Origin: Candidatus Omnitrophota bacterium
Lineage (GTDB): Bacteria; Omnitrophota; Gorgyraeia; Duberdicusellales; 4484-171
Direction of reading: 5' to 3'
Assembly: GCA_021735655.1 (NCBI GenBank)
Contig: JAIPGM010000002.1
Coordinates: 1 to 64,000 of the forward strand
Length of the DNA: 64,000 bases
In this document: piece by piece, positions 9 to 18,214 of the stretch
Layout of the letters: every line of letters starts with the position of its first letter
Position numbering within the stretch: the first letter of the stretch is position 1
Notes under the pieces: generated by a model
The model's input: the letters and a program-made list of their open reading frames with translations, nothing else
Told to the model about the DNA's origin: nothing
Database searches by the model: none
Translations under genes and position numbers: made by a program

Positions 9-2180
9 GTGGCAGATATAACAAATAACATGAGTTTGCGTAAGACCGGCATAAAGGTGGTTGGAGATATGCCCTGGGGATCGCATCTATGCCAGTTTTA
101 CCATACTAAAAGAGATTTGCTTGAAATACTCTTACCTTATTTTAAGGCCGGATTAAAGAATAACGAATTTTGTATGTGGGTGACTTCCGAGCCTCTAGGC
201 ACTAAAGAGGCAAAAGGCGCACTTAAGAAAGAGGTAAAAAACCTGGATAGGCTGATTAAAAAGGGGCAGATAGAGATACTGGATTATAGCCAGTGGTACA
301 CAAAGGGCGGCAGGTTCAATGCCGATAGAGTATTAGCCGGCTGGGTAGAGAAAGAGCAGCAAGCCTTAAAAAAAGGGTTCTCTGGCCTGCGTCTTACCGG
401 AAATACCTTCTGGCTGGAAAAGGCAGACTGGGAGAATTTTACCGAGTATGAAGCTAAGGTCAACAATACTATTGGCGGCCGCCGGATGCTGGCTATCTGT
501 ACTTATTCTCTGGATAGATGCAGCGCATCCCAGGTCATAGACGTTGTCAATAATCATCAGTTTGCCCTGATAAAACGCAAGGGCAGGTGGACTTCCGTTG
601 AAAGCTCATCGTACAGAACGGCAATAAATAATTTAGAAGAGATGAACCGTAGATATCAATTGCTTATTGACAATATACGTTTACATATCGCCGTGATAGA
701 CAAAACTGGGAAATTTACCGTGTGGAACAAATATTCGGAAGATTTATTCGGATATACAAAAAGTGAGGCCATTGGGAAGCTTAAGCCAGGGGACATACAT
801 ATTTCCCGTACGGATGCCGCAAGGGTTATCCGCGGCGCGAAAGAAAAAGGTATTTTTGATGATGAAGTTAAGTTAAGGCGCAAAAATGGCTCGCTTGTAG
901 ATGTGCATTTGGTTGTGGTGCCTAATAAAGATCACAAGGGTAATGTAATAAACTACCATGGATTTGGCGAGAACATCACCGAACGTAAGCATGCTGAAAG
1001 ATTTCTACGTCAATCACACCACGGGCTTGAAAAACGCGTTCAAGAGCGCACTCGAGAGCTAAAACAGCTAAACAAGGCTTTGGAAGCGGCAAAGGATAAT
1101 CTTAATAGAGCCCAACAAGTGGCACATATTGGAAGCTGGTATCTCGATATAGCGGATAATGCCTTAGCCTGGTCTGATGAAACCTATCACATATTTGGGT
1201 TAAATATAGGGTCACCGCTTGATTACGCGAAGTTTCTTGAGATCGTTCATCCGGAAGACAGGGAGTATGTTAATATAAGTTGGCAGAACGCCCTACGTCA
1301 AGGGTTCTATGATATAGAGCATCGTATAGTGGTGGCAGGGAGAATAAAATGGGTCAGAGAAAGCGCCCAAGTAGAATTTGATAAGAGAGGTAAGGCTATT
1401 AGGGGCATAGGCACGGTACAGGACATTACTGAACAGAAAGAGCATGAAAAGAATACCCGTAAGCTCCAGCAGGAATTAACTCACGTCTCACGGGTTACGA
1501 CGATGGGAGAACTTACCGCGGCCTTAGCACACGAACTTAACCAACCCCTCATGGCCATTATGAGCAACGCTCAGGCAGCACAGAGATTCCTGGCTAAGAG
1601 CAATCCGGATATAAATGAAATCAAAGAAATACTTTCTGATATTGTCAAAGACGATAAGCGGGCAAGTGATGTTATCAATAAGCTCAGAGCATTAATAAGA
1701 AAATCCGATATCGAGTTTACAATATTAAATATTAATGATGTTGTCAATGAAGTAGTCTCTCTTGTACACAGTGATATAGTTATAAGGAGTATAACCTTAA
1801 ATACAGAACTCAGTGACAAAAATCTTTTTGTGAACGGGGACCGGATACAGTTGCAGCAGGTTATTTTAAATCTTATTCTCAACAGTTTTGAGGCAACGAA
1901 AGATGTTGATTCCAAGAGGGTTCGTATTCGCACGGCAAAAGAGAATGATGAGTCGATTGTCGTTAGTTTTGAGGATGCGGGAACCGGAATTGATGAAGAA
2001 AACCTGAGTCGTATCTTTGAACCATTTTTCACGACTAAGAAAGAAGGCATGGGAATGGGGCTGGCGATTAATAAAGTGATTATTGAATCTCATGGCGGCA
2101 CCTTGTGGGCAGAGAATAATCCCGATAAAGGAGCGACGTTTTATTTTACTTTGCCCATAAGTAAGGAGTGTTCTAAATGA
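9..2180 (+). CDS. Sensor histidine kinase. N-terminal ~200 aa are a non-membrane sensory domain, possibly MEDS-like (GSHLCQFYH). It is followed by two PAS domains, HisKA and HATPase. The 5' end may lie upstream of the window.
   Basis: PAS-like stretches (FTVWNKYSEDLFGYTKSEAIG; IGSWYLDIADNALAWSDETYHIFGL). H-box TTMGELTAALAHELNQPL. ATPase G-boxes DAGTGIDEENLSRIFEPFFTTK and GMGMGLAI. The ORF opens with GTG at 9 with no in-frame stop upstream. Confidence 0.85.
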   Translation: MADITNNMSLRKTGIKVVGDMPWGSHLCQFYHTKRDLLEILLPYFKAGLKNNEFCMWVTSEPLGTKEAKGALKKEVKNLDRLIKKGQIEILDYSQWYTKGGRFNADRVLAGWVEKEQQALKKGFSGLRLTGNTFWLEKADWENFTEYEAKVNNTIGGRRMLAICTYSLDRCSASQVIDVVNNHQFALIKRKGRWTSVESSSYRTAINNLEEMNRRYQLLIDNIRLHIAVIDKTGKFTVWNKYSEDLFGYTKSEAIGKLKPGDIHISRTDAARVIRGAKEKGIFDDEVKLRRKNGSLVDVHLVVVPNKDHKGNVINYHGFGENITERKHAERFLRQSHHGLEKRVQERTRELKQLNKALEAAKDNLNRAQQVAHIGSWYLDIADNALAWSDETYHIFGLNIGSPLDYAKFLEIVHPEDREYVNISWQNALRQGFYDIEHRIVVAGRIKWVRESAQVEFDKRGKAIRGIGTVQDITEQKEHEKNTRKLQQELTHVSRVTTMGELTAALAHELNQPLMAIMSNAQAAQRFLAKSNPDINEIKEILSDIVKDDKRASDVINKLRALIRKSDIEFTILNINDVVNEVVSLVHSDIVIRSITLNTELSDKNLFVNGDRIQLQQVILNLILNSFEATKDVDSKRVRIRTAKENDESIVVSFEDAGTGIDEENLSRIFEPFFTTKKEGMGMGLAINKVIIESHGGTLWAENNPDKGATFYFTLPISKECSK

Positions 2181-2806
2181 GGCGGCCGCTTCCAATTGTA
2201 TTCATCGCCGACGATGATCCATCGGTGCGTAAAAGCTTGGAGAGGTTAATCAAGTCGGCGGGATTTAAAGTGGAGGCCTTTGCTTCGTCGGAAGAGTTCC
2301 TTCAACGGAAAATCCATAAAGGAGCCCCAGCTTGCTTAGTACTCGATGTGCGCATGCCGGGATTAAGCGGCATCGATCTTCAAGGAGAACTTGTTCGAAA
2401 GGGTATTTTGCTGCCGATCATATTTATTACCGGCCACGGTAGCATTCCTATGAGTGTTAAGGCGATGAAAAACGGCGCCGTAGATTTTTTACCAAAACCC
2501 TTTGGTGAAGAAGAACTGCTTTCAGCAATAGACCGGGCAATAGAAAAGTGCGGACAGATGCAAAAAAATGACGCGGAAAAGGCAAAAATCCAGCGCCGGG
2601 TCAAGACCCTTACCCCAAGAGAATACGAGTGTTTACGCTGGGTAATTACGGGAATGCTGAATAAACAGATTGCTCCTAGATTAGGTGTTACAGAGAAGAC
2701 GATTAAAGTTCATCGTGGTCGCCTGATGCATAAAATGCAAGCTGTATCGGTTGCCGACCTTGTCCGCCTTACCCAAAAGTGCGGAATAACCCCAGCCAAA
2801 AAGTAA
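2177..2806 (+). CDS. Response regulator, NarL/FixJ family (REC + LuxR-type HTH)
   Basis: REC motifs (IADDDPS, LVLDVRMPG, KPF). C-terminal LuxR HTH LTPREYECLRWVITGMLNKQIAPRLGVTEKTIKVHRGRLMHKM. Start overlaps the kinase stop by 4 nt. Confidence 0.9.
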   Translation: MRRPLPIVFIADDDPSVRKSLERLIKSAGFKVEAFASSEEFLQRKIHKGAPACLVLDVRMPGLSGIDLQGELVRKGILLPIIFITGHGSIPMSVKAMKNGAVDFLPKPFGEEELLSAIDRAIEKCGQMQKNDAEKAKIQRRVKTLTPREYECLRWVITGMLNKQIAPRLGVTEKTIKVHRGRLMHKMQAVSVADLVRLTQKCGITPAKK

Positions 2807-2817
2807 CTCGCCCCCTA

Positions 2818-2862
2818 TTGGACTAAGGTCCAATTTACAGCATTTCTTCACTCTGATATCAT
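2818..2862 (+). promoter_or_regulatory. Perfect 16-bp palindrome TTGGACTAAGGTCCAA abutting a sigma70-like promoter (TTTACA-17-TATCAT). A second copy lies at 13712-13756.
   Basis: Read directly: ttggactaaggtccaa tttaca gcatttcttcactctga tatcat. Nearly identical composite at 13712-13756 (ttggaccaaggtccaa tttaca N17 taatat). Confidence 0.55.
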
Positions 2863-2870
2863 CACTACTG

Positions 2871-3254
2871 ATGATCAAGATTAAACCAAAAATCTACATA
2901 GTTGACGATGATGAGTCCATTCGGCGAGCCCTGAGCCGTCTCATGAAATCTACCGGCTATGAGGCGGAAACGTTTGATTCGGCCCAGCTATTTTTGGACT
3001 CTGTTCCTCCCGATACTCAAGGTATCTTGATTTTGGATATTCGCATGCCGGATATAGACGGTTTTGAACTTCAAAGAAGATTAAACGTTTCGCGTTCTAA
3101 GTTGAGGATTATTTTTATTACCGCACACGCTCAGGCAGGAGACCGTGAACGTGCGATGAAAGCTGGCGCGAAAGGTTTTTTGCAGAAACCATTTAACGAA
3201 ACCTCGCTCTTAGATTTGATAAATTCTATATCCATTGAGAAGGATAAAAGATAG
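2871..3254 (+). CDS. Single-domain response regulator (CheY-like receiver)
   Basis: KIYIVDDDESIRRAL, ILILDIRMPDIDGFEL, IIFITAH, KPF. No output domain. Confidence 0.85.
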   Translation: MIKIKPKIYIVDDDESIRRALSRLMKSTGYEAETFDSAQLFLDSVPPDTQGILILDIRMPDIDGFELQRRLNVSRSKLRIIFITAHAQAGDRERAMKAGAKGFLQKPFNETSLLDLINSISIEKDKR

Positions 3255-3855: not shown

Positions 3856-4239
3856 ATGGAAAAGACATGGACATGCCAGGAGGATATTTTGTGCGGGGTT
3901 AATGAGCCAAAGGATAAAGCTAATCCTACAGACCTTGAGAAGAAACATATTCCTATAATAGAAGCACCGGACAAGGTTAAAAAGGATGAACTTTTTGAGA
4001 TTAAAATTGAGATCGGAAAGTTATTAGCCCACCCTAACGAACCGGCTCATTTTATAGAGTGGATCGAACTTTATTGTGGGCACACATTCTTAGGGAGAGC
4101 GTCTTTAAGCGGCGGTGCAAGCTATCCAACAGTGACTTTTCAGGTGAAACTAAGTCATGCTCACGGGCCGCTGAAAGCCTGGGGAAAATGTAATATACAT
4201 GGTTTGTGGGAAGGCCTGAAAACAATAACTGTAGAATAG
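3856..4239 (+). CDS. sor: Superoxide reductase (neelaredoxin-type, single-domain)
   Basis: Conserved SOR motifs EKKHIP, HPNEPAHFIEWIEL and CNIHGLWEG (His4-Cys iron site). Confidence 0.85.
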   Translation: MEKTWTCQEDILCGVNEPKDKANPTDLEKKHIPIIEAPDKVKKDELFEIKIEIGKLLAHPNEPAHFIEWIELYCGHTFLGRASLSGGASYPTVTFQVKLSHAHGPLKAWGKCNIHGLWEGLKTITVE

Positions 4240-4250
4240 GAGGTATCATA

Positions 4251-4439
4251 ATGAAAGCGATCGTAAATCAGGAAACATGTACAGGTTGTACTTTATGCGC
4301 TCAAGCCTGTCCGGATATCTTTGAAATGGATGGTGAAAAGGCAAAAGTTCTTGTTGACGTTGTAGCGAAAGATAAAGAAGAATGCAGTAAGAAGGCAGCC
4401 GATGAATGTCCGGTTACGGCCATATCTATAGAAGAATAA
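4251..4439 (+). CDS. Small single-cluster ferredoxin
   Basis: CTGCTLCAQACP ... CP cluster motif, 62 aa. GGAGG RBS before the ATG at 4251. The track ORF 4206 is an N-terminal over-extension. Confidence 0.75.
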   Translation: MKAIVNQETCTGCTLCAQACPDIFEMDGEKAKVLVDVVAKDKEECSKKAADECPVTAISIEE

Positions 4440-4455: not shown

Positions 4456-4881
4456 ATGGCGAAAATAACGAAAGAGAAACTGATTGAGCTTCTTAATAAG
4501 GACTTGGGTTTAGAGTATACCGCGTGTGTGCAGTATACCCAGCATCAAGGGGTCCTAAAAGGCGCGATGTATCAGAACATGCAGAAAGAGCTGGTTATCC
4601 ACGCCCAAGAAGAGCTCGCGCACGCGACAACGATTGCGGCTCAAATAGACTATTTGGGAGGCTTTCCGACCGTTGATATGCCGCTGCCTAAAACCTCTAA
4701 AGAAAACGAAACCATGCTGAAACAGGATCTAGAAGGGGAAAACGACGCTATTGCAAGGTATATAGTGAGGATAAAACAGGCTGAAGAACTGAATCTTTAT
4801 CACTTAGCCCAGCAGTTAAGAAATATCCTGGCTGTTGAGCAGGAACACGCTATGGATTTAGAGCAGGCCCTGGGTAAATAA
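4456..4881 (+). CDS. Ferritin-like diiron protein (Dps/rubrerythrin superfamily)
   Basis: Two E-x-x-H motifs (EELAH; EQEH) about 90 aa apart in a 141-aa helical protein. Confidence 0.55.
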   Translation: MAKITKEKLIELLNKDLGLEYTACVQYTQHQGVLKGAMYQNMQKELVIHAQEELAHATTIAAQIDYLGGFPTVDMPLPKTSKENETMLKQDLEGENDAIARYIVRIKQAEELNLYHLAQQLRNILAVEQEHAMDLEQALGK

Positions 4882-4883
4882 AA

Positions 4884-5096
4884 ATGGTTGTTTTGAAAAA
4901 AAAGAGAGCTAGACAAAAGGTGTTTCTTTATGGCCAGAACCTCAAGCCGGAAGATATTCTTATTTATCTACCAACTGCCTTTAGGCAGAAATTGACCAAA
5001 AGGCAAGCTAACTATCTTAAGCAGGCTTTTTTTAAAACGGTTCTAGCCTACCAAAAGAAAGAAGAGCAGGATTATTTAAATAAAATGCTGGTTTAG
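4884..5096 (+). CDS. Hypothetical small basic protein
   Basis: 70-aa ORF filling the gap between the ferritin-like gene and korA. No recognisable motif. Confidence 0.25.
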   Translation: MVVLKKKRARQKVFLYGQNLKPEDILIYLPTAFRQKLTKRQANYLKQAFFKTVLAYQKKEEQDYLNKMLV

Positions 5097-5104
5097 GTGA
5101 GAAG

Positions 5105-6769
5105 ATGCAAGAGTTATCTATATTGATCGGTGGCAAGGCCGGTTTTGGCATAGACCGTTCGGGTATGGTTTTAGGCCGGCTTTTAAACAGGCTGGGGTAT
5201 CGCATTTATATATACCGCGATTATCCTTCACTTATCCGTGGAGGGCACACCTTTTCTGTGATACGTGCCTCAAAAAACAGGATAGCTGCTTACGCTGACA
5301 AGGTGGATTTTGTTTTAGCTTTAAATAAGGAGACACTCGATTTACATAAAGATAGGCTAAAAAAAGATTGCATGTGTATTTATGATTCTGAACAAACAGA
5401 TGCAATGTCCGGTCTTTGTTGCCTGGGGCTACCATTGAGTAAGTTCCTTAAAATAGAAAAAGCGCCCGAGTTGATGCGTAATACTTGTATGCTTGGCGCA
5501 CTGACAAAAGCTATCGGCCTAGACTTTGAAATTTTAGAAGATGTCCTGAAAAAAGAGTTTTCTCAGAATGCCGATCTCAATATAAAAGTTGCCAGAAGGG
5601 GCTTTGAAGAAGCTAAAGAACTTATTAAGATAGATCCTTTGAATAGGGAAAGTTTGCCGTTACTTACTGGGAATCAGGCCATTGCCTTGGGATTGGTCAA
5701 AGGAGGCCTAAGGGCCTATGTTTCTTATCCGATGACTCCCAGTTCTCCGATATTACATTATCTGGCGAATGTGGCGGATGATTTTAACTTGGATGTGGTT
5801 CATCCGGAAAGCGAAATAAGCGTTATACTTATGGCGTTAGGTTACGCGTATGCCGGTAAGAAAGCGGCAGTAGGAACATCGGGCGGCGGTTTCTGCCTTA
5901 TGACCGAAGGCTTAAGTCTGAGCGGTATGGCTGAATTACCCGTTGTAATAGTCCTTGGCCAGCGGCCGGGCCCGTCAACGGGTCTGCCTACCTACTCCTC
6001 GCAGGGAGATTTACATTTTGCCTTGAGCGCCGGCCATGGTGAATTTACGCGTTTTGTTGTCGCGCCCGGTGACGCCGAAGAATCATATTACTGGTCGGCG
6101 ATGTCCATGAATATCAGTTGGAAATATCAGATCCCGGCTATAATTCTTACTGACAAAGAGTTAGGGGAAAGTACATCAAATTTCGATATATCGTTAATCG
6201 GAAATGTATCTGAAGAAGAAATAGCTATGCGGGATGGAAAATTGCCTTATAAAAGATATGCACTTACAGATAACGGCATTTCACCTTTAGCCTTCCCCCC
6301 GGTTAAGAATGAAATGATCAAAGTAAACAGCTATGAGCATGACGAATTTGGTATAACCACAGAAGTACCGGAAGAGACCATAAAGATGCAGGAAAAACGA
6401 TTGCGTAAAGAAAAATTTTTAGCAGAGGAACTTGAGGGGGTCAAGGCGGTAAATGTATATAATGGCAAGAGAGATGACATCGCACTTCTTTGTTGGGGTT
6501 CTAACAAGGGCGTCGGTGTTGAAATTGGAGAAAAGTTAGGAATAAAAGTCATTCAGCCGGTTGTGCTTAATCCTTTTCCAATAAAACAATTTCAGCAGGC
6601 TCTATCAGGAGTAAAAAAGCTTATTTCAGTAGAAAGCAACGCAACCGGCCAGCTTGCGAGACTCCTTAATAATTATGGTATTAGCGTTGATGAGAAAATT
6701 CTGAAATATGACGGCAGGCCATTTGGCATTGAAAGATTAGAAGAGAAGGTAAAAGAGGTGATAGCATGA
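5105..6769 (+). CDS. korA: 2-oxoacid:ferredoxin oxidoreductase, fused gamma-alpha subunit
   Basis: N-terminal gamma-like domain (GGKAGFGIDRSGMVLGRLL ... SLIRGGHTFSVIRAS) followed by an alpha domain (NQAIALGLVKGG ... YPMTPSS). Confidence 0.8.
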   Translation: MQELSILIGGKAGFGIDRSGMVLGRLLNRLGYRIYIYRDYPSLIRGGHTFSVIRASKNRIAAYADKVDFVLALNKETLDLHKDRLKKDCMCIYDSEQTDAMSGLCCLGLPLSKFLKIEKAPELMRNTCMLGALTKAIGLDFEILEDVLKKEFSQNADLNIKVARRGFEEAKELIKIDPLNRESLPLLTGNQAIALGLVKGGLRAYVSYPMTPSSPILHYLANVADDFNLDVVHPESEISVILMALGYAYAGKKAAVGTSGGGFCLMTEGLSLSGMAELPVVIVLGQRPGPSTGLPTYSSQGDLHFALSAGHGEFTRFVVAPGDAEESYYWSAMSMNISWKYQIPAIILTDKELGESTSNFDISLIGNVSEEEIAMRDGKLPYKRYALTDNGISPLAFPPVKNEMIKVNSYEHDEFGITTEVPEETIKMQEKRLRKEKFLAEELEGVKAVNVYNGKRDDIALLCWGSNKGVGVEIGEKLGIKVIQPVVLNPFPIKQFQQALSGVKKLISVESNATGQLARLLNNYGISVDEKILKYDGRPFGIERLEEKVKEVIA

Positions 6770-7617
6770 CTTCCCAGAACTTAGAAACTAACGCTAAAAA
6801 CACATGGTGCCCGGGCTGCGGTAATTTCGCTATTTTAAATTCCATAAAAGCGGTCTTAAAAAGTATCCGTGAAGAAGGAACGTCTTTAGAGAATGTGGTA
6901 TTGGTCTCCGGGATCGGTTGTCATGCTAAAATAGTTGACTATATAAACGCGAACAGTTTCTATTCTATTCACGGAAGAGCCACACCAGCAGCCGAAGGAA
7001 TTAAACTCGCGAATCCAAATCTTAAAGTTATAGGTTTTGCCGGTGACGGTGACGCTTATGGCGAAGGATTGGAACATCTGATATTCGCCGCTAAGCGGAA
7101 TATCGATATTACTATGATAATACATGATAATCGTGTATACGGGCTTACAACTGGCCAGTATACCCCTACATCTCCGCTTGGTTTTAAAGGCCGTTCGACT
7201 CCCGGGGGAAGTAAGGAACGCCCGATTAACCCTCTTGAACTTATGCTGGCCAGCGGCGCGACTTTTCTTGCCAGAGGTTTTTCACATGGAATAGAACAGC
7301 TCAAGAAAATATTTAAGGAAGCGATAAACCATAAGGGCTTTGCTTTGGTAGATGTACTTCAAGTTTGCGTTACCTTCTATAACATGTATGAGTACTACGA
7401 TAAACGAGTGTATGAACTAAAAGATCATGATGCAGGAGATTATGCCGAGGCGCTTAATAAAATAAAGGAATGGAATTATCACGATGATTCGAAGATAGCG
7501 CTTGGTGTATTATATAAAAAAGAAAGTCCGACTTTTGAAGAGGGGCTTTCATCATCCGGAAAAAGCGAAATAGACGTTGATTCAAACATAAAAAGCATAC
7601 TGGCTAAAACTATTTAA
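6766..7617 (+). CDS. korB: 2-oxoacid:ferredoxin oxidoreductase beta subunit (TPP-binding)
   Basis: WCPGCGNF plus GIGCH ... [12 protein letters not shown]-binding motif. Translationally coupled to korA (4-nt overlap). Confidence 0.85.
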
Positions 7618-7633: not shown

Positions 7634-8059
7634 ATGAGAGATCATGTTTATAAAGTTGTTGAGCTTGTCGGGTCTTCAAAAGCCACCATAGAAGATGCGG
7701 TTAAAAACGCTCTTTCCAAGTCGTCGGAATCTATCAGAAATTCACGATGGTTTGAGGTTAATCAAATAAGGGGGGAAATAGAAGACGGCGAAGTATCGTA
7801 TTGGCAGGTTGGGTTAAAGCTGGGGTTTACAGTCGAAGGGAGCAGCCGGAAAGAAGAGGTACCTGTCGAAACAAGTAAAAAAGCGGCAAAAACAGGGAAA
7901 TACCAATGCAAGGTTTGCAGCTATATCTATGATCCCGAAAAAGGTGACCCGGATAACGGCATAAAAGCGGGGACCTCTTTTAAAGATTTACCCGATGACT
8001 GGAAATGCCCGGAATGCGGTGTAAACAAGGATCAATTTGAAGAAATGAAGGGAGAGTAA
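7634..8059 (+). CDS. Dodecin - rubredoxin fusion protein
   Basis: N-terminal ~70 aa match the dodecin fold sequence ([12 protein letters not shown] ... [11 protein letters not shown] ... [13 protein letters not shown]). C-terminal ~50 aa are a rubredoxin ([14 protein letters not shown] ... WKCPECG). Confidence 0.75.
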
Positions 8060-8060
8060 T

Positions 8061-8915
8061 ATGGATAGAAGAATTACCTTGAAGTCAAAAACACTGTTTT
8101 TGGCAGGCAGGAGAGTCAAAGAAGGAGACTCGGCGTCACAATTTTATGCAGTTGATAGCGAGCTTAAGGAAGTTAAACTAACTGACTACAAAGATTCTAT
8201 AAAAATCATCACCTCTTTTCTTTCTCTGGATACACCTACTTGTAATTTGCAAGTTAAGGAATTTAACAAAAGGGCTAGCAAGTTGGCAGAAGATATTGTT
8301 GTTATCGGCATCAGCCAGGATTTACCTTTCGCCCAAAAGCGCTTTTGTGAGGCGAATAAAATCGAGAAGGTAATAACTCTTTCTGATTACAAAACCAACT
8401 CTTTTGGCATTAATTACGGCCTTTTGATTAAAGAACTGCGCCTTCTGGCCCGTGCGGTTATTATTGTAGATAAAAACAATGTCATTCGTTATGTTTCGAT
8501 TGTTCAAGAGGCAAGTGATGAGCCGGATTACCAGTCAGCGCTAAAGGCACTAAAAGATGTGATCGAAAAACCATTTCTTAAGGGATCCCAAGAGAGGCCT
8601 TCTCATTGTCTTCCCTGTGAAGCCGGTACCCCACCGCTTAAAGAGGGCCGCATAGAGCAGTTAATGGCTACTGTTGAGGGCTGGGAACTTATCGAAGGCA
8701 AGAAAATAAAAAAGACTTTTAAATTCAAAGATTTTATTGAGGCCAAATATTTTTTGGATATTATTAGCGTCATTGCCGAAGAGCAGGGCCATCATCCTAA
8801 CATCACGATTATTTATAATAAAGTAACGATTACGCTTACCACTCACGCTATCGGCGGGCTTAGCGATAATGATTTTATTATGGCTCAGATCATAGATGAA
8901 ATAGGGGGGGCCTGA
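8061..8915 (+). CDS. Thiol peroxidase (Tpx-like peroxiredoxin) fused to pterin-4a-carbinolamine dehydratase
   Basis: Tpx-like region with peroxidatic Cys context (SLDTPTCNLQ) and resolving Cys (KRFCEA). C-terminal PCD/DCoH motif EEQGHHPNITIIYNKVTITLTTH. Confidence 0.7.
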   Translation: MDRRITLKSKTLFLAGRRVKEGDSASQFYAVDSELKEVKLTDYKDSIKIITSFLSLDTPTCNLQVKEFNKRASKLAEDIVVIGISQDLPFAQKRFCEANKIEKVITLSDYKTNSFGINYGLLIKELRLLARAVIIVDKNNVIRYVSIVQEASDEPDYQSALKALKDVIEKPFLKGSQERPSHCLPCEAGTPPLKEGRIEQLMATVEGWELIEGKKIKKTFKFKDFIEAKYFLDIISVIAEEQGHHPNITIIYNKVTITLTTHAIGGLSDNDFIMAQIIDEIGGA

Positions 8916-10201
8916 TGAAAAGAGTCATAGCGATATATCGTTGGGGACTCATATTGATAACCGGATTTGTTTTATTATTTTTGCCGAAACTTGCCCAAGC
9001 CGAGATACACGCTGAAACTATAGAGTATAAAGACGGCGAGGTTATTTTGGAAGGGTATCTTGCTTATGATGACTCAATAAAAGAAAAACGTCCCGGGGTT
9101 TTAGTCGTGCATGAGTGGACAGGCATAAACGATTATATAAAACAACGTGTTAATCAATTGGCAGAAGAAGGTTATATAGCTTTTGCGGCTGATATTTATG
9201 GTAAAAGCATCAGACCGCAAAATAAGGAAGAAGCGGCTAAGCAGGCGGGCATTTACCGTGCCGACCGTAAACTCATGCGCAGAAGGGTACAGGCGGGTTT
9301 GGCCTGCCTTAAAAAAAATCCGATCACCGACCCTTCGCGTATTGCCGCGATAGGTTATTGTTTCGGCGGTGGCGTGGTCTTGGAGCTTGCCCGAAGCGGA
9401 GCTGATGTCGAGGGAGTGGTAAGCTTTCATGGCAACCTGGATACTCCTAACCCGGAAGACGCCGGAATGATAAAAGCGAAAGTGCTGGTTCTTCATGGTG
9501 CCGATGATCCCCATGTTCCAATGAGACAGGTAAAAGATTTTGAGAGGGAAATGGACCGGGCAAATGTGGATTGGCGCATGGTAAGTTACAAAGGCGCTGT
9601 CCATAGTTTTACGAATCCGGCGTCCGGAAACGATCCTTCCACGGGCGCGGCTTACAACAAAGAAGCGGATATGAATTCATGGAAAGAAATGATTGCCTTC
9701 TTTAATAAAATATTTCACGATTATAATTGGCCTTTAGAGGCTATGGCAAATATTACCGATACTAGTGGTAAAGAAGTAGGGAAGGTGCTGTTTAGGGAAA
9801 ACGAAGGCCGCGGAGTAACCATAGATTTAAAGCTACATTCATTTTTACCGGGCAGGCACGCTTTTCATATACATGAATTTCCTGTTTGTGATGCGCCGGA
9901 CTTTAAATCAGCAGGAGGGCATTTTAATCCTTATGGAAAACAGCATGGGTTTCTGAACGAAAAAGGCCACCATGCCGGGGATTTGCCAAATATCATTGTA
10001 GAGGAAAATGGTAATTGCCAGATGTCTTTCACTACGACACAGATAACTTTAAGAAAAGATAAGGAAAATTCTATATTAAGAAAGTTTGGGACATCTCTGG
10101 TGATTCATGAGCTGCCGGATGATTATTTCACCGATCCGGCCGGAGGCGGCGGCAAGAGGCTTGCCTGCGGAACAATAAAAGAAGTGGAGGTAAAAAGGTG
10201 A
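8915..10201 (+). CDS. Secreted dienelactone hydrolase - Cu/Zn superoxide dismutase fusion
   Basis: Signal peptide. DLH-family core (VLVVHEWTGIN ... GYCFGGG ... LVLHGADD). C-terminal SodC motifs (HAFHIHEFPVCD ... GGHFNPYGKQHG ... HAGDLPNI ... LVIHELPDD ... RLACGTI). Confidence 0.75.
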   Translation: MKRVIAIYRWGLILITGFVLLFLPKLAQAEIHAETIEYKDGEVILEGYLAYDDSIKEKRPGVLVVHEWTGINDYIKQRVNQLAEEGYIAFAADIYGKSIRPQNKEEAAKQAGIYRADRKLMRRRVQAGLACLKKNPITDPSRIAAIGYCFGGGVVLELARSGADVEGVVSFHGNLDTPNPEDAGMIKAKVLVLHGADDPHVPMRQVKDFEREMDRANVDWRMVSYKGAVHSFTNPASGNDPSTGAAYNKEADMNSWKEMIAFFNKIFHDYNWPLEAMANITDTSGKEVGKVLFRENEGRGVTIDLKLHSFLPGRHAFHIHEFPVCDAPDFKSAGGHFNPYGKQHGFLNEKGHHAGDLPNIIVEENGNCQMSFTTTQITLRKDKENSILRKFGTSLVIHELPDDYFTDPAGGGGKRLACGTIKEVEVKR

Positions 10202-10713
10202 AGATAGCAGTATTAGTAGAGGATCATTATCAGGTTTTGGAGGTTTGGTATCCATATTTACGCCTTAAGGAAGAAGGTATAGAAACGGTTTTCGTCGGAC
10301 CGGGACGGAAAAAAGAATACGGTAGCAAGGAAGGCTATCCTGCCCCCGAAGAGACATCGGTAGAAACAGCTAGTGTGGATGATTTTGACGGGGTGATTGT
10401 ACCCGGCGGTTACGCTCCTGACTTGTTGCGAAGGTCAAAGAAGATAGTCGATTTTGTGAAAAATATAAATAAACAAAAGAAACTTGTTGCCGCCATATGC
10501 CATGCCGGTTGGGTCTTGGTTTCCGCCGGCATATTGAAGGGAAAGAAGGCGACCTGTTTTTCCGCCATAAAAGACGACGTCGTCAATGCCGGCGCGGAAT
10601 TTATCGACAAGGCGGTCGTTGTTGATGGCAATATAGTAACATCCCGCACTCCGTATGATCTTGGGCCGTTTTGCCGAGAGATCATAAAATTTCTAAAGAG
10701 TAAGGGACGTTAA
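10198..10713 (+). CDS. DJ-1/PfpI family protein
   Basis: AAICHAGWVL nucleophile-elbow motif. 171 aa. Confidence 0.8.
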   Translation: MKIAVLVEDHYQVLEVWYPYLRLKEEGIETVFVGPGRKKEYGSKEGYPAPEETSVETASVDDFDGVIVPGGYAPDLLRRSKKIVDFVKNINKQKKLVAAICHAGWVLVSAGILKGKKATCFSAIKDDVVNAGAEFIDKAVVVDGNIVTSRTPYDLGPFCREIIKFLKSKGR

Positions 10714-10747: not shown

Positions 10748-11497
10748 ATGGATAAAGCCGATAGATTAGCCGGCCTTTTAAAGCGGCTCAATACCGGGGA
10801 AAATCCGGAAAGCGTGAAGAAGGAGGCCAAAGAATTCTTGGCGGCCCTTGACCCGAAAGACCTTTCATTGGCAGAGCAGAAGTTGATTGAGGCCGGGCTT
10901 TCGTATGAAGACTTACGTAACCTCTGTTGTGTCCACATGGAGGTACTTAAGGGCCAGCTGGAGAATATGAAGATAAAATTAAGCCCGGGGCATGTGATCC
11001 ATACAATGGTTGCCGAGCACGATATGATTTTGGGGTTTTTAGACCAACTTGAGAAGGTGAATAACAACATTCAGAAAATGGACCGATTCAACAGTGACAG
11101 GGAAGAATTTAAAGAATTAAAGCATATTGCCGAGCATCTTGTCGGTTCCGAACCGCATCACAAGCGTGAAGAGGATGTCGTATTCCCTGAGATGGAAAAG
11201 AAAGGGGTCTCGGCGCCGCAGAAGATAATGAGGATGGAGCATGAAGTACTGCGCGCCCGCAAGAAAGACCTTCTTGGTTTGGTGTCGAAGGCGCAGGTGA
11301 TGGATTTTAACGAATTCAAAAGTGAACTCGCGGCAACAGCGGGTTATATAATGTTTACTCTGCGTGAGCATATTTTCAAGGAAAACAATATTCTTTACCC
11401 CACGGCCATTGAAATCATTGATGAACAAGAAAGCTGGGATAGAATGAAGAAAGAGTGCGATACGATAGGGTACTGCTGCTTTACTCCGGAGCGGTGA
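10748..11497 (+). CDS. Hemerythrin-like (HHE cation-binding) / DUF438 domain protein
   Basis: His/Glu-rich helices (HTMVAEHDMI, HIAEHL, EHEVL, REHIFKEN) typical of a hemerythrin-like four-helix bundle. Confidence 0.55.
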   Translation: MDKADRLAGLLKRLNTGENPESVKKEAKEFLAALDPKDLSLAEQKLIEAGLSYEDLRNLCCVHMEVLKGQLENMKIKLSPGHVIHTMVAEHDMILGFLDQLEKVNNNIQKMDRFNSDREEFKELKHIAEHLVGSEPHHKREEDVVFPEMEKKGVSAPQKIMRMEHEVLRARKKDLLGLVSKAQVMDFNEFKSELAATAGYIMFTLREHIFKENNILYPTAIEIIDEQESWDRMKKECDTIGYCCFTPER

Positions 11498-11690: not shown

Positions 11691-12629
11691 ATGGCTGATG
11701 ATTACGACGTGATTATCATCGGTGGCGGCCCTGCGGGATTAACCGCAGGTATCTACGCCGCCCGGACCGGATTATATACGCTGGTCATCGACAAGAATAT
11801 TCTTGCCGGTGCATTAGGCTCTACGTCAAGAATAGAAAATTACCCCGGCATTCTTAAACCGTGTTCCGGCCGGACGCTGATCGGTAAACTCCGGCGGCAG
11901 GCTCAAAAGTTTGGGGCTGAGCTTGTGCGAGAGCGCGTGTTACACACCGAACTGGAGGGTCCCGTCAAAAAGGTCGTTTCCGAAGCCCGGGAATACCGCT
12001 CTCGTAGCCTGATTGTCGCCAGCGGGGCCATGGGGAGGAAGGCTTCGGTGGACGGCGAAAAGGAGTTCCTGGGCAAAGGGGTGAGTTACTGCGCGGTATG
12101 TGATGCGCCTTTCTTTCGCGGCAAGAAGGTTGCCCTGGTGGGAGGTATCGAGGAAATAAGTCAGGAGATCGGGGTTATCGCCAAATTCGCCAGTGCGATA
12201 TATATTGTAAGTCTTCAGGCGATAGATAGTCCAGGGAAGAAGACGATCGACTTCGCTGATAACCTTACCGTTTTCACTAACCACCGGTTGAGCAAGATCT
12301 ATGGGGCAAGGGCCGTTGAGGGTGTTGAAATAATCTCGGCCGGGGGCCAGCGAAAACAGATCGCGGTCGATGGGGTATTTATGTATCTGCACGGCAATCG
12401 GCCGCTGGTCGATTTCCTTGGTGATCATTTGAAAACTGGAAGCGATCGCTGTTTGATTGTAAATAGAGAGGATATGTCTACTTCCCTCGAAGGGGTGTTC
12501 GCTGCCGGCGATGTTATATGTACCAGGATCCGCCAGGCTGTGGTCGCGGCTTCAGAGGGGTGCATTGCCGCTCTTTCGGCGGAGAAATATATTATGCAGA
12601 GGCGGTCGCCTCGTGCGCAATGGCACTGA
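11691..12629 (+). CDS. Thioredoxin reductase-like FAD/NAD(P) disulfide oxidoreductase (GC-rich copy)
   Basis: DVIIIGGGPAGLTAGIYAAR, redox CAVCDA, second Rossmann GKKVALVGGIE. Local GC is well above the flanking sequence. Confidence 0.75.
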   Translation: MADDYDVIIIGGGPAGLTAGIYAARTGLYTLVIDKNILAGALGSTSRIENYPGILKPCSGRTLIGKLRRQAQKFGAELVRERVLHTELEGPVKKVVSEAREYRSRSLIVASGAMGRKASVDGEKEFLGKGVSYCAVCDAPFFRGKKVALVGGIEEISQEIGVIAKFASAIYIVSLQAIDSPGKKTIDFADNLTVFTNHRLSKIYGARAVEGVEIISAGGQRKQIAVDGVFMYLHGNRPLVDFLGDHLKTGSDRCLIVNREDMSTSLEGVFAAGDVICTRIRQAVVAASEGCIAALSAEKYIMQRRSPRAQWH

Positions 12630-13862: not shown

Positions 13863-14816
13863 ATGAGTAATTTAAGGACAATCAAAGAACGAATATTCAA
13901 AGCGAAGGATTTCGTCATCGCCTGCCACCGGAATCCCGATGGCGATTGCATTGGTTCTCTTTTAGCCTTAGGTTTGGGCTTGAAAACTTTAAAAAAAAGA
14001 GTGATTATGGTTTCTCAAGACGGGGTGCCTTTAAGCTATAGAGGGCTACCGGGGGCCAATAAGATAACTAGAAGATTAGGGAAAGTGCCGGATATGGCCA
14101 TAACCGTGGATTGCAACTCAAAAGAAATGGTTGGCAGGCCGTTTAAGACTATACGGAAAGCAAAGTATTTATTAGAAATAGACCACCATGAATTTAGGGA
14201 ACCATATGGCAACATGTTTCTCATAGACACAAAAGCGGCGTCTGTAGGCGAAATGGTTTATAAGTTATTGTATTATTTAAGAATAGGCATAACCAAAGAA
14301 ATAGCCGAAAATATATTAACTTCTATAATTGTTGAGACTAATTCATTCCGGCTTCCTACAGTAAAGCCGGCTACTTTTAACATTTGTTACAAACTCCAGA
14401 AAACCGGAGTGGACTTTCATAAAATTTCCGAAACAGTTTATTGGTCGAAAACTAAACAAGCAGTAATACTTTCCGGCATCTGTATGTCCAAACTCGAATT
14501 TTCGCGAAACGGTCAAATAGCCTGGTCAATAGTATCAAAAAAAGATTTTTCCAGCGTGAAGGGCAGGGACGAAGACGTAGACCCCGTGGCTAACGATATA
14601 CTTGCGATAAAGGCGATCAAGATAGCAGTTTTATTCCGGGAAAAGAGCCAAAATATTTTAAGGGTAAGTTTAAGAGCAAAAGGAGGCATAAATGTTGCCT
14701 CGCTTGCTTATAAATACGGCGGCGGCGGCCATTTTGATTCTGCCGGGTGCCAGATCACTAATACTAAAAAAGAGATCAGAGGTTTTATCGAAGCGGCCAA
14801 GCGGTTATTGAGATGA
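13863..14816 (+). CDS. nrnA: DHH/DHHA1 phosphoesterase (NrnA-like oligoribonuclease / pAp phosphatase)
   Basis: CHRNPDGDCIGS (DHH motifs), IDHHEF, C-terminal GGGGH DHHA1 motif. Confidence 0.8.
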   Translation: MSNLRTIKERIFKAKDFVIACHRNPDGDCIGSLLALGLGLKTLKKRVIMVSQDGVPLSYRGLPGANKITRRLGKVPDMAITVDCNSKEMVGRPFKTIRKAKYLLEIDHHEFREPYGNMFLIDTKAASVGEMVYKLLYYLRIGITKEIAENILTSIIVETNSFRLPTVKPATFNICYKLQKTGVDFHKISETVYWSKTKQAVILSGICMSKLEFSRNGQIAWSIVSKKDFSSVKGRDEDVDPVANDILAIKAIKIAVLFREKSQNILRVSLRAKGGINVASLAYKYGGGGHFDSAGCQITNTKKEIRGFIEAAKRLLR

Positions 14817-15427
14817 AACGTATACTTATTGTTTTTGCCAAAGAGCCTCAGGAAGGCAGGGTAAAAACCCGGCTGTTGGACTGTTTATCCGCTAGAGAAT
14901 GCCTTAAGCTTTATAAGAAGTTGTTAAAAAATACGGTCAGCTTAGCCAGAAAAGTAAAATGTAGCGGAAGAATTATGGCTTATGATTCTTATAATCAAAG
15001 GGCGCCTTTTCTCGAAAGAATAGCTTCGGATTTTACATTTTATAAACAGGCTGGAAGAGGCCTCGGAGCAAGAATGTTTGATGTTTTTAAAGCGATTCTT
15101 AAAAGTAATACTAAAGCGGTGATTATCGGCTCGGATTCACCGAATCTACCGATAAATTATATAGACCGAGCTTTTGAGAAACTTAGTAAAAACGATCTTG
15201 TCTTAGGCCCCGCCGATGACGGCGGCTATTATCTCATTGGCCTTAAACAGCCATGTAAAAAATTATTCGAAAATATAAAATGGAGCTCTGGTACGGTGTT
15301 CGATAGAACGGTCAAGAAGGCAAAAAAACTAAAGAAGAAGACCACTGTTTTGGATTATTGGTATGACATAGATGAGCCAAAAGATTTAAAATATATTAGA
15401 AAAAAGCCTGAAAGTGTTGATCGATGA
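14813..15427 (+). CDS. DUF2064 (TIGR04282-type) glycosyltransferase-partner protein
   Basis: RILIVFAKEPQEGRVKTRL ... GPADDGGYYLIG. Confidence 0.65.
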   Translation: MKRILIVFAKEPQEGRVKTRLLDCLSARECLKLYKKLLKNTVSLARKVKCSGRIMAYDSYNQRAPFLERIASDFTFYKQAGRGLGARMFDVFKAILKSNTKAVIIGSDSPNLPINYIDRAFEKLSKNDLVLGPADDGGYYLIGLKQPCKKLFENIKWSSGTVFDRTVKKAKKLKKKTTVLDYWYDIDEPKDLKYIRKKPESVDR

Positions 15428-16098
15428 AAGTATCAATAATTATACCAACCTATAATGAAGAAAATAGTATCGAGAGTACTTTAGGGCCCTTGATCGGTGA
15501 AAATGGTTGTGAAGTCATTGTTGTGGATGGATATAGCAAGGATAGGACAAAGGAGATCGTCCGTAGCTACCCGGTTATTTTTAAGCAGGCTGGTAAAAAT
15601 AGAGCTAATCAGCTCAATGCGGGCGCCGGCATTGCCGGCGGGGATGTTTTAGTGTTTCTTCACGCTGATTGTATTTTGGAAAAAGGTGGCTTGCCGGCAA
15701 TTATAAATAGTGTTAAAAAGGGGTTTATCGGCGGATGTTCCTCGCAAAGAATAAATTCCTCGGCTTTAATTTATAGGTTCATTGAGGCGTCAGGAAATAT
15801 CCGGGCAAAGCTCTCTCATATCTTTTACGGCGATCAAGCCATTTTTGTCAGAAGAGACATATTCCAAAAAATTGGCGGCTTTGACGATGTCGCCCTGTTT
15901 GAGGATATTATATTTTCCCGAAAACTTAAAAAATACGGCAAGACCTGTACTTTAAAGAATAAGATATTTACATCTGCGCGGCGCTGGGAAAAACAGGGAA
16001 TCATCAAGACGACCTTGATTAACTGGCTGGTCAGTATTGGATTTTTTTTTGGTATCGCCCCGCATATTTTAAAGAAAATATATTCTGAGGTACGGTGA
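15424..16098 (+). CDS. Family 2 glycosyltransferase (TIGR04283-like)
   Basis: VSIIIPTYNEE ... VVDGYSKDRT ... FLHADC. Translationally coupled to the DUF2064 gene. Confidence 0.75.
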   Translation: MKVSIIIPTYNEENSIESTLGPLIGENGCEVIVVDGYSKDRTKEIVRSYPVIFKQAGKNRANQLNAGAGIAGGDVLVFLHADCILEKGGLPAIINSVKKGFIGGCSSQRINSSALIYRFIEASGNIRAKLSHIFYGDQAIFVRRDIFQKIGGFDDVALFEDIIFSRKLKKYGKTCTLKNKIFTSARRWEKQGIIKTTLINWLVSIGFFFGIAPHILKKIYSEVR

Positions 16099-16101
16099 GT
16101 T

Positions 16102-17532
16102 ATGAAATATGATTACGATTTGATTATTCTAGGCGGAGGAGCTGCCGGATTGTTTGCTGCCAGTGTGGCTAATACTTTGGGAGCAAAGGTAGCGATAGTT
16201 GAAAAGCATAGATTAGGCGGGGATTGTACCTGGTACGGATGCATACCGTCTAAAGCGCTCATTAGATCAGCACAGGTTGCTCATAATCTATGCTGCCCGG
16301 AGAAGTTTGGTTTATCTTTAAAGAGGGCCTGCGGCATCGAAGCCGGTTCGGTGATGGCGCATGTCCGGGATGTAACTATTGAAATCGCCGCTCATCATAA
16401 GCCCGAGGATCTAAGAAAGAGAGGGATCGAGATCATCTTCGGTAGCCCTCATTTTATAGATGAAGCAACCGTTAAGGTCAGCGATAAGATATATAAAGCG
16501 AAAAAGTATATCATTTGTACAGGTTCTCATCCGTTTATTCCAACCATAGAGGGCTTAAGGGAAATAGATTATTTGACTAACGAAACCATATTTGATTTAA
16601 AAGAGCTGCCAGGAAGCTTAATTGTTTTAGGCGGCGGGCCGATCGGCATAGAGCTGGCCCAGAGCCTTAAAAGATTGGGTGTTGAAGTCTCGGTAGTGGA
16701 GATGTTAGATAGAATTGTTCCTAAAGAAGACAGAGAAGTAGCAGAAGTTTTGGAGCAAAAGCTAAAAGCCGAAGGCATCAGGCTTATGACATCTCATAAG
16801 GCGGTTAATTTCGTCAAAAATACTGATAAAATAACAGTAACCCTGGAAGATAAGGGAAAAAATAAATCAGAAATCAGCGCCGATAAAGTTTTGGTCGCGG
16901 TGGGAAGGGCTGCGAATATAGCGGGGCTTGATTTAGAACGCTGCGGTGTAAATCACGATAAAAAATCAATTGAAGTAAACAAATTTTTGCAGACAACCAA
17001 CAAGAATATTTTTGCAGCCGGAGATGCGGTCGGCCCTTATATGTTCAGCCATGTAGCAGCTTATCAAGCTTCGATCTGCGTAAGAAATGCGATGTTTAAA
17101 AGATTAGCCTGGCAGAAAGCGAGTTATGAAAATATTGCCTGGGCTACTTTTACCGAACCGGAAGTCGCCCATTTGGGATTGACCGAAGAAGAAGCGAGAA
17201 AAAAATACAAGAAAATAAAAATTTACAAGTCGGATTATATTAAGTCAGACCGGGCGGTTACTGATTTAGAAAAGGACGGTTTAGTCAAAGTTATCTGCGA
17301 GCGAAACGGCAATATAATAGGGGCGCATATTGTTGGAGCCGCTGCCGGAGAAATTATCCAGGGCCTTTCAATAGCTAAATCCCAGAAAATACCTTTAAGT
17401 AAAATTGCCCAAACAATTTTTGTTTACCCTACTTTATCAGAGCTGATCAAGAAAACTGCGGCCTTGAATTTAGTCGAAAAGATGCAAAACCGGCTTATAA
17501 AGTTAGCTCTTAAAATAATGAGGCAAAATTGA
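16102..17532 (+). CDS. Class I pyridine nucleotide-disulfide oxidoreductase (mercuric reductase / dihydrolipoyl dehydrogenase-like)
   Basis: DLIILGGGAAG, redox-active GGDCTWYGCIPSK, second Rossmann LIVLGGGPIGIE, dimerisation-domain HP motif. Confidence 0.75.
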   Translation: MKYDYDLIILGGGAAGLFAASVANTLGAKVAIVEKHRLGGDCTWYGCIPSKALIRSAQVAHNLCCPEKFGLSLKRACGIEAGSVMAHVRDVTIEIAAHHKPEDLRKRGIEIIFGSPHFIDEATVKVSDKIYKAKKYIICTGSHPFIPTIEGLREIDYLTNETIFDLKELPGSLIVLGGGPIGIELAQSLKRLGVEVSVVEMLDRIVPKEDREVAEVLEQKLKAEGIRLMTSHKAVNFVKNTDKITVTLEDKGKNKSEISADKVLVAVGRAANIAGLDLERCGVNHDKKSIEVNKFLQTTNKNIFAAGDAVGPYMFSHVAAYQASICVRNAMFKRLAWQKASYENIAWATFTEPEVAHLGLTEEEARKKYKKIKIYKSDYIKSDRAVTDLEKDGLVKVICERNGNIIGAHIVGAAAGEIIQGLSIAKSQKIPLSKIAQTIFVYPTLSELIKKTAALNLVEKMQNRLIKLALKIMRQN

Positions 17533-17533
17533 T

Positions 17534-18205: not shown

Positions 18206-18214
18206 AGGTTTTTC

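Follow-up and report, generated by a model that had tools for sequence, protein, structure and literature searches.

The window analysed here is a stretch of 64,000 nucleotides from a Candidatus Omnitrophota bacterium (positions 1 to 64,000 of contig JAIPGM010000002.1, assembly GCA_021735655.1), and the gene considered is an open reading frame (ORF) at 8061..8915 (+) in which a thiol peroxidase (Tpx) is followed in frame by a pterin-4a-carbinolamine dehydratase (PCD, or DCoH). The ORF starts with ATG and runs uninterrupted through 284 codons to a stop, exactly at the coordinates and in the reading frame given by the original prediction. Its product, Tpx-PCD, is very probably a genuine and conserved protein with two active sites that belongs to an island of genes for defence against reactive oxygen species (ROS). 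A Shine-Dalgarno-like GGGAGAG at 8050..8056 (+), read from the sequence and lying within the 3' end of the upstream gene, is the putative ribosome-binding site, and its GGGAG core (8050-8054) is spaced 6 nt from the ATG. A 1-nt gap separates the ATG of Tpx-PCD from the stop codon before it, and the stop of Tpx-PCD shares bases with the ATG of the next gene (TGATG, 8913-8917); this arrangement suggests that Tpx-PCD is translationally coupled inside an operon.

Both halves of the protein lie above curated thresholds, which puts the domain calls far beyond chance and bears out the Tpx-like and DCoH/PCD domains named in the original prediction. In the Pfam scan, Redoxin matches aa 20-161 (E 4.9e-22, 78.8 bits against a cut-off of 26.6), AhpC-TSA matches aa 22-145 (E 3e-18), and Pterin_4a (PF01329) matches aa 192-281 over profile positions 2-91 of 91 (E 3e-29, 101.4 bits against a cut-off of 26). 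Similarly, the NCBIfam thiol peroxidase equivalog NF001808 aligns aa 4-165 with model positions 3-166 of 167 (177.9 bits, cut-off 123), and NF002017, 4a-hydroxytetrahydrobiopterin dehydratase, scores 88.7 bits (cut-off 80). The four remaining PRK00823 sub-models fall short of their respective cut-offs, and the PCD half fits no named sub-type but.1-2.

Residue conservation was read from a close-homologue set, the 120 full-length matches listed, with identity from 100% down to 59%, from NCBI, JGI, ENA and Logan assemblies. By family models, motifs and predicted fold, the N-terminal half (aa 1-168; 8061..8564, +) is a complete Tpx-type atypical 2-Cys peroxiredoxin. The Tpx motif (P/S)xxx(T/S)xxC is present as S55-L-D-T58-P-T-C61, and both this motif and the active-site R131 are found in 120/120 homologues; Cys61 (codon 8241..8243, +) is the probable peroxidatic cysteine from established knowledge of Tpx. 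About 34 residues further on, the predicted resolving Cys96 (codon 8346..8348, +; motif DLPFAQKRFC) is also kept in 120/120 and aligns with the Cys of DLPFAQKRWC in Staphylococcus aureus. In a sequence search of the PDB, aa 4-167 align over the full length with S. aureus Tpx 3p7x (E 5.5e-41, 46% identity), and in Foldseek the Tpx half of the AlphaFold2 model, a predicted structure, superposes on 3p7x_B with a target-normalised template-modelling score (TM) of 0.95 and a root-mean-square deviation of 1.4 Å; the block means of the predicted local distance difference test (pLDDT) over this half are 71-93, mostly 88-93. Like the stand-alone Tpx of S. aureus (3p7x) and E. coli (1qxh/3hvs), with which it aligns end to end, this half has T-x-x-C, a resolving Cys in DLPFAQxRFC and the conserved Arg. 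Unlike them, the fusion bears a complete second enzyme at its C-terminus, and its gene does not stand alone but belongs to an anaerobe ROS island.

The PCD domain comprises aa 181-284, with its own N-terminal CxPC segment included (8601..8912, +; PF01329, NF002017), and matches solved PCD/DCoH structures such as 2v6s and 1dch with E of about 1e-14 to 1e-16 (2v6s, E 5.9e-16). Naponelli et al. in 2008 reportedly gave [EDKH]-x3-H-[HN]-[PCS]-x5,6-[YWF]-x9-[HW]-x8,15-D as the signature of PCD activity, and aa 240-271 of the window protein (8778..8873, +), which read E-x3-H-H-P-x5-Y-x9-H-x8-D, fit it exactly. The peptide EEQGHHPNITIIYNKVTITLTTH, which the original prediction had quoted, is aa 240-262 of this protein. 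The strict regular expression fits 106/120 homologues, and the misses mostly have Q or R at the first position; none of the His, Pro, aromatic and Asp positions is conserved in fewer than 117/120. Residue by residue, H244, P246 and D271 are present in 120/120, H245 and H262 in 119, Y252 in 117 (W or F in the others) and E240 in 107 (Q in 12). The C-terminal half accordingly appears to have everything that a catalytically active PCD needs, and is predicted to be a dehydratase. With the bacterial PCDs (PhhB/COG2154) it shares the full-length Pfam match, the canonical signature and a K-C-x-x-C...P-L N-terminus; unlike them, it stands covalently behind a peroxiredoxin and among oxidative-stress genes, not beside phhA or molybdenum cofactor (Moco) genes.

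The N-terminus of the PCD domain carries the pair C183-L-P-C186 (8607..8618, +), in a stretch that lies outside the matching solved PCD structures. It might be supposed that this pair is a built-in redox relay that resolves or reduces the Tpx sulfenate or disulfide, or a switch that is oxidised by Tpx and turns PCD on. The pair is near-invariant (C183 in 120 and C186 in 119 of the 120 homologues), resembles the CGPC of thioredoxin and adjoins a linker modelled as flexible, through which it could reach the Tpx active site; CxxC is also kept in three of the four divergent representatives that have no Cys96 (P0126, P0127 and P0143), and fusions of a peroxiredoxin with a reductant have precedents in Prx5-glutaredoxin (1NM3) and BCP-nitroreductase (4EO3) (PMC8113037). 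However, K-C-x-x-C...P-L is also the N-terminus of stand-alone PCDs from Methylobacterium (CTPC), Acetoanaerobium (CEAC), Stanieria (CVPC) and Vibrio (CEAC), four unrelated phyla, which indicates that CxxC is ancestral to bacterial PCDs and was not gained for the fusion. In addition, the PCD fold differs from the thioredoxin fold, and the presence of Cys96 in all 120 core members leaves no need for an extra resolving thiol. A relay or switch of this kind is regarded as quite improbable, and CxPC as an innovation specific to the fusion is ruled out by the stand-alone proteins.

Between the two domains lies a linker of ~12 residues (aa 169-180; 8565..8600, +), which is the most variable segment of the protein and in fact its sole variable part, with a column entropy of 2.15 bits against 0.85-1.06 in the domains. 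The AlphaFold model has low confidence here, with mean pLDDT of 51-54 in the 10-residue blocks over 171-190 and values below 50 at residues 175-182, while the whole protein has a mean pLDDT of 85.7 and a predicted template-modelling score (pTM) of 0.77. In sequence and fold searches of the PDB, no solved chain covers both domains, and the best query-normalised TM is 0.55.

Distribution and divergence of the fusion

Both Pfam domains are present in 120/120 of the homologues listed, whose lengths range from 281 to 289 aa. With one genome per species, the fusion is found in at least 80 GTDB species, and all of the best 80 loci cover query residues ~1-281. By label, 59 of these loci belong to Omnitrophota/Omnitrophica and 10 to Planctomycetota, among them the anammox genera Ca. 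Jettenia and Ca. Loosdrechtia, and the remainder to Margulisiibacteriota, Patescibacteria, Ratteibacteria, Chlamydiota, and Gamma- and Deltaproteobacteria, where some phylum labels of the metagenome-assembled genomes (MAGs) may be unreliable. The complete chromosomes CP070684.1 and CP070807.1 are also among the carriers. In an exhaustive HMMER search of 1.84 billion representatives at 50% identity, about 20 representative clusters span both domains, with identity down to 35%. The original prediction had treated the fusion as a trait of this organism; it is instead family-wide in Omnitrophota and related lineages.

Pairwise divergence in one half correlates with that in the other (Mantel r 0.66, matched by 0/999 permutations), which is what a single ancient fusion passed on intact should show. 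Mean pairwise identity is a little higher in the PCD half (72%) than in the Tpx half (67%). These results bear on whether a sequencing, assembly or frameshift error has joined two adjacent genes. The architecture and length (281-289 aa) are shared by all the homologues listed, from four sources of assemblies, the species genomes include complete chromosomes, the frame is continuous, the linker length is conserved and the halves co-diverge, so the probability of such an artefact is negligible and this explanation is ruled out. The in-frame fusion of the original prediction is therefore genuine.

Public records label this protein 'thiol peroxidase' or 'lipid hydroperoxide peroxidase' only; for instance, the window protein is identical to P0001, an NCBI MAG protein of 'Candidatus Omnitrophica' recorded as 'thiol peroxidase'. 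Such names hide the second enzyme. A full-text literature search found no paper describing a Tpx-PCD fusion or linking PCD to peroxide defence, which agrees, together with the lack of a solved chain spanning both domains, with the original remark that this is not a textbook architecture. The fusion is visible in sequence databases, yet the literature appears to contain no description of it. What is new is the type of hybrid peroxiredoxin and the genomic context for PCD, each half being an ordinary member of its family.

Further redox modules are joined to the fusion in some longer representatives, where Pfam scans give Rhodanese-Tpx-PCD in P0121 and P0131 and Rubrerythrin-Tpx-PCD in P0122. Among deeply divergent fused representatives, the resolving Cys is lost in P0126, P0127, P0131 and P0143 (<50% identity), and the PCD histidines are lost in P0125, P0130, P0135, P0137, P0140 and P0141, in which the domains are still fused. 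In the divergent P0149 the peroxidatic Cys is lost and the PCD site is perfect, which suggests that PCD chemistry itself is under selection. Judged by these residues, the core family looks bifunctional, and the fusion seems able to outlast either activity.

It is also conceivable that PCD acts mainly as a structural, oligomerisation or protein-docking module, as DCoH does with HNF1, so that Tpx dimers are built into higher-order particles or docked onto a partner from the island and dehydratase chemistry is secondary. DCoH is an obligate dimer or tetramer. Tpx enzymes are likewise obligate dimers or tetramers in solved structures (oligomeric-state table of PMC8113037). The divergent representatives that keep a PCD domain without its catalytic histidines are consistent with such a role, and non-catalytic proteins of the PCD fold exist, such as acRAF (4low), which is among the PDB matches of the PCD half. 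Against this stands the complete catalytic signature, fixed in 119-120 of the 120 core members, which a purely structural role would not need and which non-catalytic PCD-like proteins such as acRAF do not have; a mainly structural module is distinctly unlikely.

Three other architectures were seen among distant relatives. In P0246 (222 aa), a tRNA-binding domain is fused to a PCD domain with 58% identity to that of Tpx-PCD; P0153 (554 aa) consists of four tandem PCD domains; and P0133 and P0145 are tandem Tpx-Tpx proteins.

Genes around Tpx-PCD

The neighbourhood of the fusion gene was compared in 83 sources, in which 1,298 ORFs within 8 kb on each side were clustered in an unbiased way; two pairs of sources, L001/L008 and L002/L003, represent one place each. 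The most recurrent neighbours on the same strand are FNR-like NAD-binding proteins (35 of 83), glutaredoxin-like (Grx-like) proteins and flavodiiron proteins (FDP; 34 each) and thioredoxin reductase-like (TrxR-like) proteins (33), followed by DJ-1/PfpI, rubrerythrin and PNPOx-like proteins (29 each), desulfoferrodoxin (28), the alpha and beta subunits of 2-oxoacid:ferredoxin oxidoreductase (POR; 27 and 25, directly upstream, anammox genomes included), an Rrf2 regulator (26) and hybrid-cluster protein (Hcp; 23). The DJ-1/PfpI gene lies at a median of 2 nt downstream of the fusion gene, and the TrxR-like gene usually adjoins the Grx-like gene. Across phylum labels, the recurring order is Rrf2, Fer4, Hcp, superoxide reductase (SOR, not always present), POR alpha-beta, Tpx-PCD, DJ-1, NAD-binding, FDP, PNPOx, rubrerythrin, Grx, TrxR, and true anammox genomes retain the core of POR alpha-beta, Tpx-PCD and DJ-1. 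It is therefore strongly supported that Tpx-PCD belongs to a conserved O2/ROS-defence island of anaerobes and is linked to oxidant defence. The island has the inventory of oxidative-stress operons of strict anaerobes, namely SOR, rubrerythrin, FDP, rubredoxin, Grx-like and TrxR-like proteins, and differs from them in the addition of Tpx-PCD, flanked in fixed order by the 2-oxoacid:ferredoxin oxidoreductase and DJ-1.

Between 5105 and 10713 of the window, neighbouring genes overlap or are at most 16 nt apart. The two-subunit 2-oxoacid:ferredoxin oxidoreductase (554 and 283 aa) occupies 5105..7617 (+; alpha 5105..6769, beta 6766..7617), and the Pfam families read for the subunits of the 82% identical relative L002 are POR/POR_N and TPP_enzyme_C/PFO_beta_C. 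This enzyme may be the island's own electron source; as a speculation, it could also be a source of organic peroxide when its thiamine intermediate meets O2. Directly upstream of Tpx-PCD lies a dodecin-rubredoxin fusion gene (7634..8059, +; 141 aa, dodecin aa 5-68, rubredoxin aa 89-135), an unusual architecture in which a flavin-storage protein is joined to an iron electron carrier. The next gene, whose start overlaps the Tpx-PCD stop, encodes a secreted fusion of dienelactone hydrolase and Cu/Zn superoxide dismutase (DLH-SodC; 8915..10201, +; 428 aa) with a signal-peptide-like N-terminus, the hydrolase at aa 46-266 and the dismutase at aa 289-421, for which no counterpart was found around Tpx-PCD in the other 82 sources compared. 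Then follow the DJ-1/PfpI gene (10198..10713, +), a DUF438-hemerythrin gene (10748..11497, +) and a TrxR-like flavoprotein gene (11691..12629, +), a candidate electron supply for the Tpx half.

Farther upstream are a MEDS-PAS histidine kinase (MEDS-PAS-PAS; 9..2180, +), two response regulators, one of LuxR type and one a stand-alone receiver domain (2177..3254, +), a desulfoferrodoxin-type SOR (3856..4239, +), a ferredoxin assigned by clustering (4206..4439) and a ferritin-like protein (4456..4881). The regulators of the island thus seem to differ by lineage, with the histidine kinase and response regulators in the window and Rrf2 in relatives. By tblastn, no homologue of the Grx-like protein, FDP, rubrerythrin, PNPOx, Rrf2 or Hcp was found in the window, and two TrxR-like genes are present in it. 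A 70-aa ORF at 4884..5096, considered as a candidate Grx-like reductant, contains no Cys. A scan of the island for promoters and terminators gave counts not above those of shuffled sequences. The region is unusually rich in fused stress-defence genes, among them DUF438-hemerythrin and an MsrA-MsrB methionine sulfoxide reductase fusion at 20567..21583 (+).

The composition of the island raises the question of whether the substrate is a flavin and not a pterin, in which case Tpx would act as a reductase on a flavin C4a-hydroperoxide, with dehydration of C4a-hydroxyflavin by the PCD-like domain, limiting the H2O2 that arises from autoxidation of reduced flavins. The C4a chemistry of flavins and pterins is analogous, and the island is full of flavoproteins and flavin handlers, with FDP, TrxR-like and PNPOx-like proteins and, in the window, a flavin-binding dodecin directly upstream. 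However, dodecin occupies the equivalent position in just 6/83 sources, and the PCD signature is of the canonical pterin type common to stand-alone PCDs; we know of no precedent for such a flavin reaction, and consider it very improbable.

Proposed function of Tpx-PCD

As the preferred reading, it is tentatively proposed that Tpx-PCD is a cytoplasmic bifunctional enzyme that couples hydroperoxide reduction to pterin/folate damage control under oxidative stress, a reading in which the pterin link is what we infer. From homology and residue conservation, Cys61 would attack the hydroperoxide (ROOH to ROH) and Cys96 would resolve the resulting Cys61 sulfenate into an intramolecular disulfide, which may be re-reduced by a thioredoxin- or glutaredoxin-like protein and a TrxR-like flavoprotein of the kinds encoded in the island. 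A Grx-like/TrxR-like peroxiredoxin reductase was reportedly described in Clostridium pasteurianum by Reynolds, Meyer and Poole in 2002. On the same grounds, the PCD half would convert 4a-hydroxy-tetrahydropterins into quinonoid dihydropterins. Exposure of a strict anaerobe to O2 or peroxide would oxygenate its reduced pterins at C4a, candidates being tetrahydrofolate-type pterins, unconjugated tetrahydropterins and possibly molybdopterin precursors, and rapid dehydration by PCD would bring the carbinolamine into the quinonoid form, which can be reduced again, and so forestall its rearrangement into 7-substituted pterins, which are inhibitory dead ends. Tpx would remove the damaging peroxide. 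In the strongest version of this proposal, Tpx would itself reduce a pterin 4a-hydroperoxide to the carbinolamine that is the substrate of PCD, so that the two domains would catalyse consecutive steps.

Several reports provide the chemical background. Tpx enzymes are described as giving resistance to organic hydroperoxides (PMC9495333). Tetrahydropterins autoxidise readily (PMC9737128), and without PCD the 4a-carbinolamine dehydrates non-enzymatically, partly rearranging to 7-substituted pterins that inhibit pterin enzymes (PMC9737128). It has also been reported that tetrahydrobiopterin (BH4) is a radical-trapping antioxidant against lipid peroxidation (PMC11253697).

A number of observations weigh against this proposal. 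The original prediction had suggested a pterin-dependent step in oxidant defence, of which the oxidant-defence part is upheld by the conserved ROS neighbourhood and the pterin part is not: within 8 kb on each side in the 83 sources, the recurrent families include no gene for pterin biosynthesis, pterin reduction (such as dihydropteridine reductase), Moco or an aromatic hydroxylase, nor any other pterin-dependent gene, and no pterin, folate or Moco gene is among the ~40 window ORFs scanned. Conversely, no peroxiredoxin gene lies beside that of the stand-alone PCD in the anaerobe Acetoanaerobium, although this reverse 'Rosetta-stone' check is uninformative. The retained Cys96 means that the Tpx half turns over without anything from a pterin, and the loss of the PCD histidines in divergent members that are still fused indicates that physical association can persist without PCD catalysis. 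In the model, the pTM of 0.77 and the low-confidence linker offer no evidence of a fixed inter-domain interface or channel. Finally, PMC9737128, citing Kirsch 2003, describes a free pterin hydroperoxide as disfavoured in BH4 autoxidation, which proceeds by a radical chain giving quinonoid dihydrobiopterin and H2O2, and this weakens the version with consecutive steps.

An alternative is that the two activities are independent and fused only for 1:1 co-expression, sharing neither substrate nor channel nor pathway, and that the fusion arose merely because operons are compacted in small genomes. In favour of this, the linker is short and variable and predicted to be flexible, the neighbourhood has no pterin genes, both domains are complete and like their stand-alone relatives, the ancestral CxxC of PCD included, and the other two-domain fusions in the island (dodecin-rubredoxin, DLH-SodC and MsrA-MsrB) suggest a general tendency to fuse genes. 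However, the fusion is old and stable, in at least 80 species under several phylum labels and with co-diverging halves, and by the 'Rosetta-stone' principle random fusions of unrelated functions seldom last at such breadth. It is always found in the ROS island and not with a metabolic pathway that needs a housekeeping PCD, further redox modules (rhodanese, rubrerythrin) have been joined to it, and PCD is its more conserved half. Independence of the two activities is a serious possibility, if a somewhat unlikely one.

The coupling of peroxide reduction with pterin damage control can be extended to a hitherto unrecognised pterin-based antioxidant cycle in anaerobes, with Tpx-PCD at its core as a two-step 'pterin peroxide reductase/dehydratase', a proposal that goes further and is unlikely as it stands. 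In one version, the C4a-(hydro)peroxy adduct of a reduced pterin or folate, as the physiological co-substrate, would be reduced by Tpx to the 4a-carbinolamine; in the other, the pterin or folate would take the oxygen of Cys61-SOH and so become the 4a-carbinolamine. In both, the fused PCD would dehydrate this product at once to the quinonoid dihydropterin for re-reduction.

Hybrid peroxiredoxins are known from Haemophilus influenzae (Prx5-glutaredoxin, 1NM3) and Thermotoga maritima (BCP-nitroreductase, 4EO3), in which, as in Tpx-PCD, a peroxiredoxin and a second functional domain share one chain (PMC8113037). Their partner is an electron donor, with a Grx fold or an FMN nitroreductase, whereas that of Tpx-PCD is a pterin lyase of the PCD fold with only the ancestral CxxC, neither a thioredoxin-fold nor an FMN domain, and this places Tpx-PCD outside the fused-reductant class of hybrids. 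Moreover, its peroxiredoxin is of the Tpx subgroup and not Prx5 or BCP. Tpx-PCD is absent from the structurally characterised hybrid peroxiredoxins listed in the review PMC8113037, and it would add a new type to this short list.

The fusion may also bear on a long-standing question about PCD. Many bacteria, archaea, plants and fungi that have no pterin-dependent hydroxylase nevertheless encode PCD homologues, whose role there has been a question since at least 2008; PCDs occur and are active in organisms that lack aromatic amino-acid hydroxylases, with their role unsettled (PMC3223725), as was reportedly also found by Naponelli in 2008. As near these 'partnerless' PCDs, no pterin-dependent aromatic amino-acid hydroxylase was found near Tpx-PCD, either among the scanned window ORFs or within 8 kb of the fusion gene in the 83 sources. 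Comparative genomics has tied PCDs in organisms without these hydroxylases to Moco metabolism, with a proposed ancillary role in it (PMC3223725). In Tpx-PCD, the active site of PCD is intact, and its fusion to an organic-hydroperoxide reductase, seen in many species and set in an O2-defence operon, amounts to 'Rosetta-stone' evidence and suggests that one role of PCD is the protection or recycling of reduced pterins or folates under oxidative stress, an idea that can be tested directly with one recombinant protein. If true, the antioxidant cycle would supply the long-sought function of 'partnerless' PCDs (COG2154) where aromatic amino-acid hydroxylases are lacking. The fusion also bears on the O2 tolerance of uncultured Omnitrophota and anammox bacteria.

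Other genes in the window

Two further groups of genes were observed farther along the window. The cluster at 14813..20224 (+) encodes a DUF2064/CofC-like protein, a GT2 glycosyltransferase, a flavoprotein with Pyr_redox_2 and a dimerisation domain, a VTT/DedA membrane protein and a 669-aa ORF in which radical SAM, DUF3641 and a SAM methyltransferase are combined. This cluster resembles gene sets of the 'rSAM/selenodomain-associated' or arsenosugar (ArsS-type) kind, here with a fused methyltransferase. In addition, a nucleotidyltransferase toxin of AbiEii type (type IV toxin-antitoxin/abortive infection) is encoded at 35021..36046 (+), and the 199-aa ORF upstream of it (34414..35013) may be its partner.

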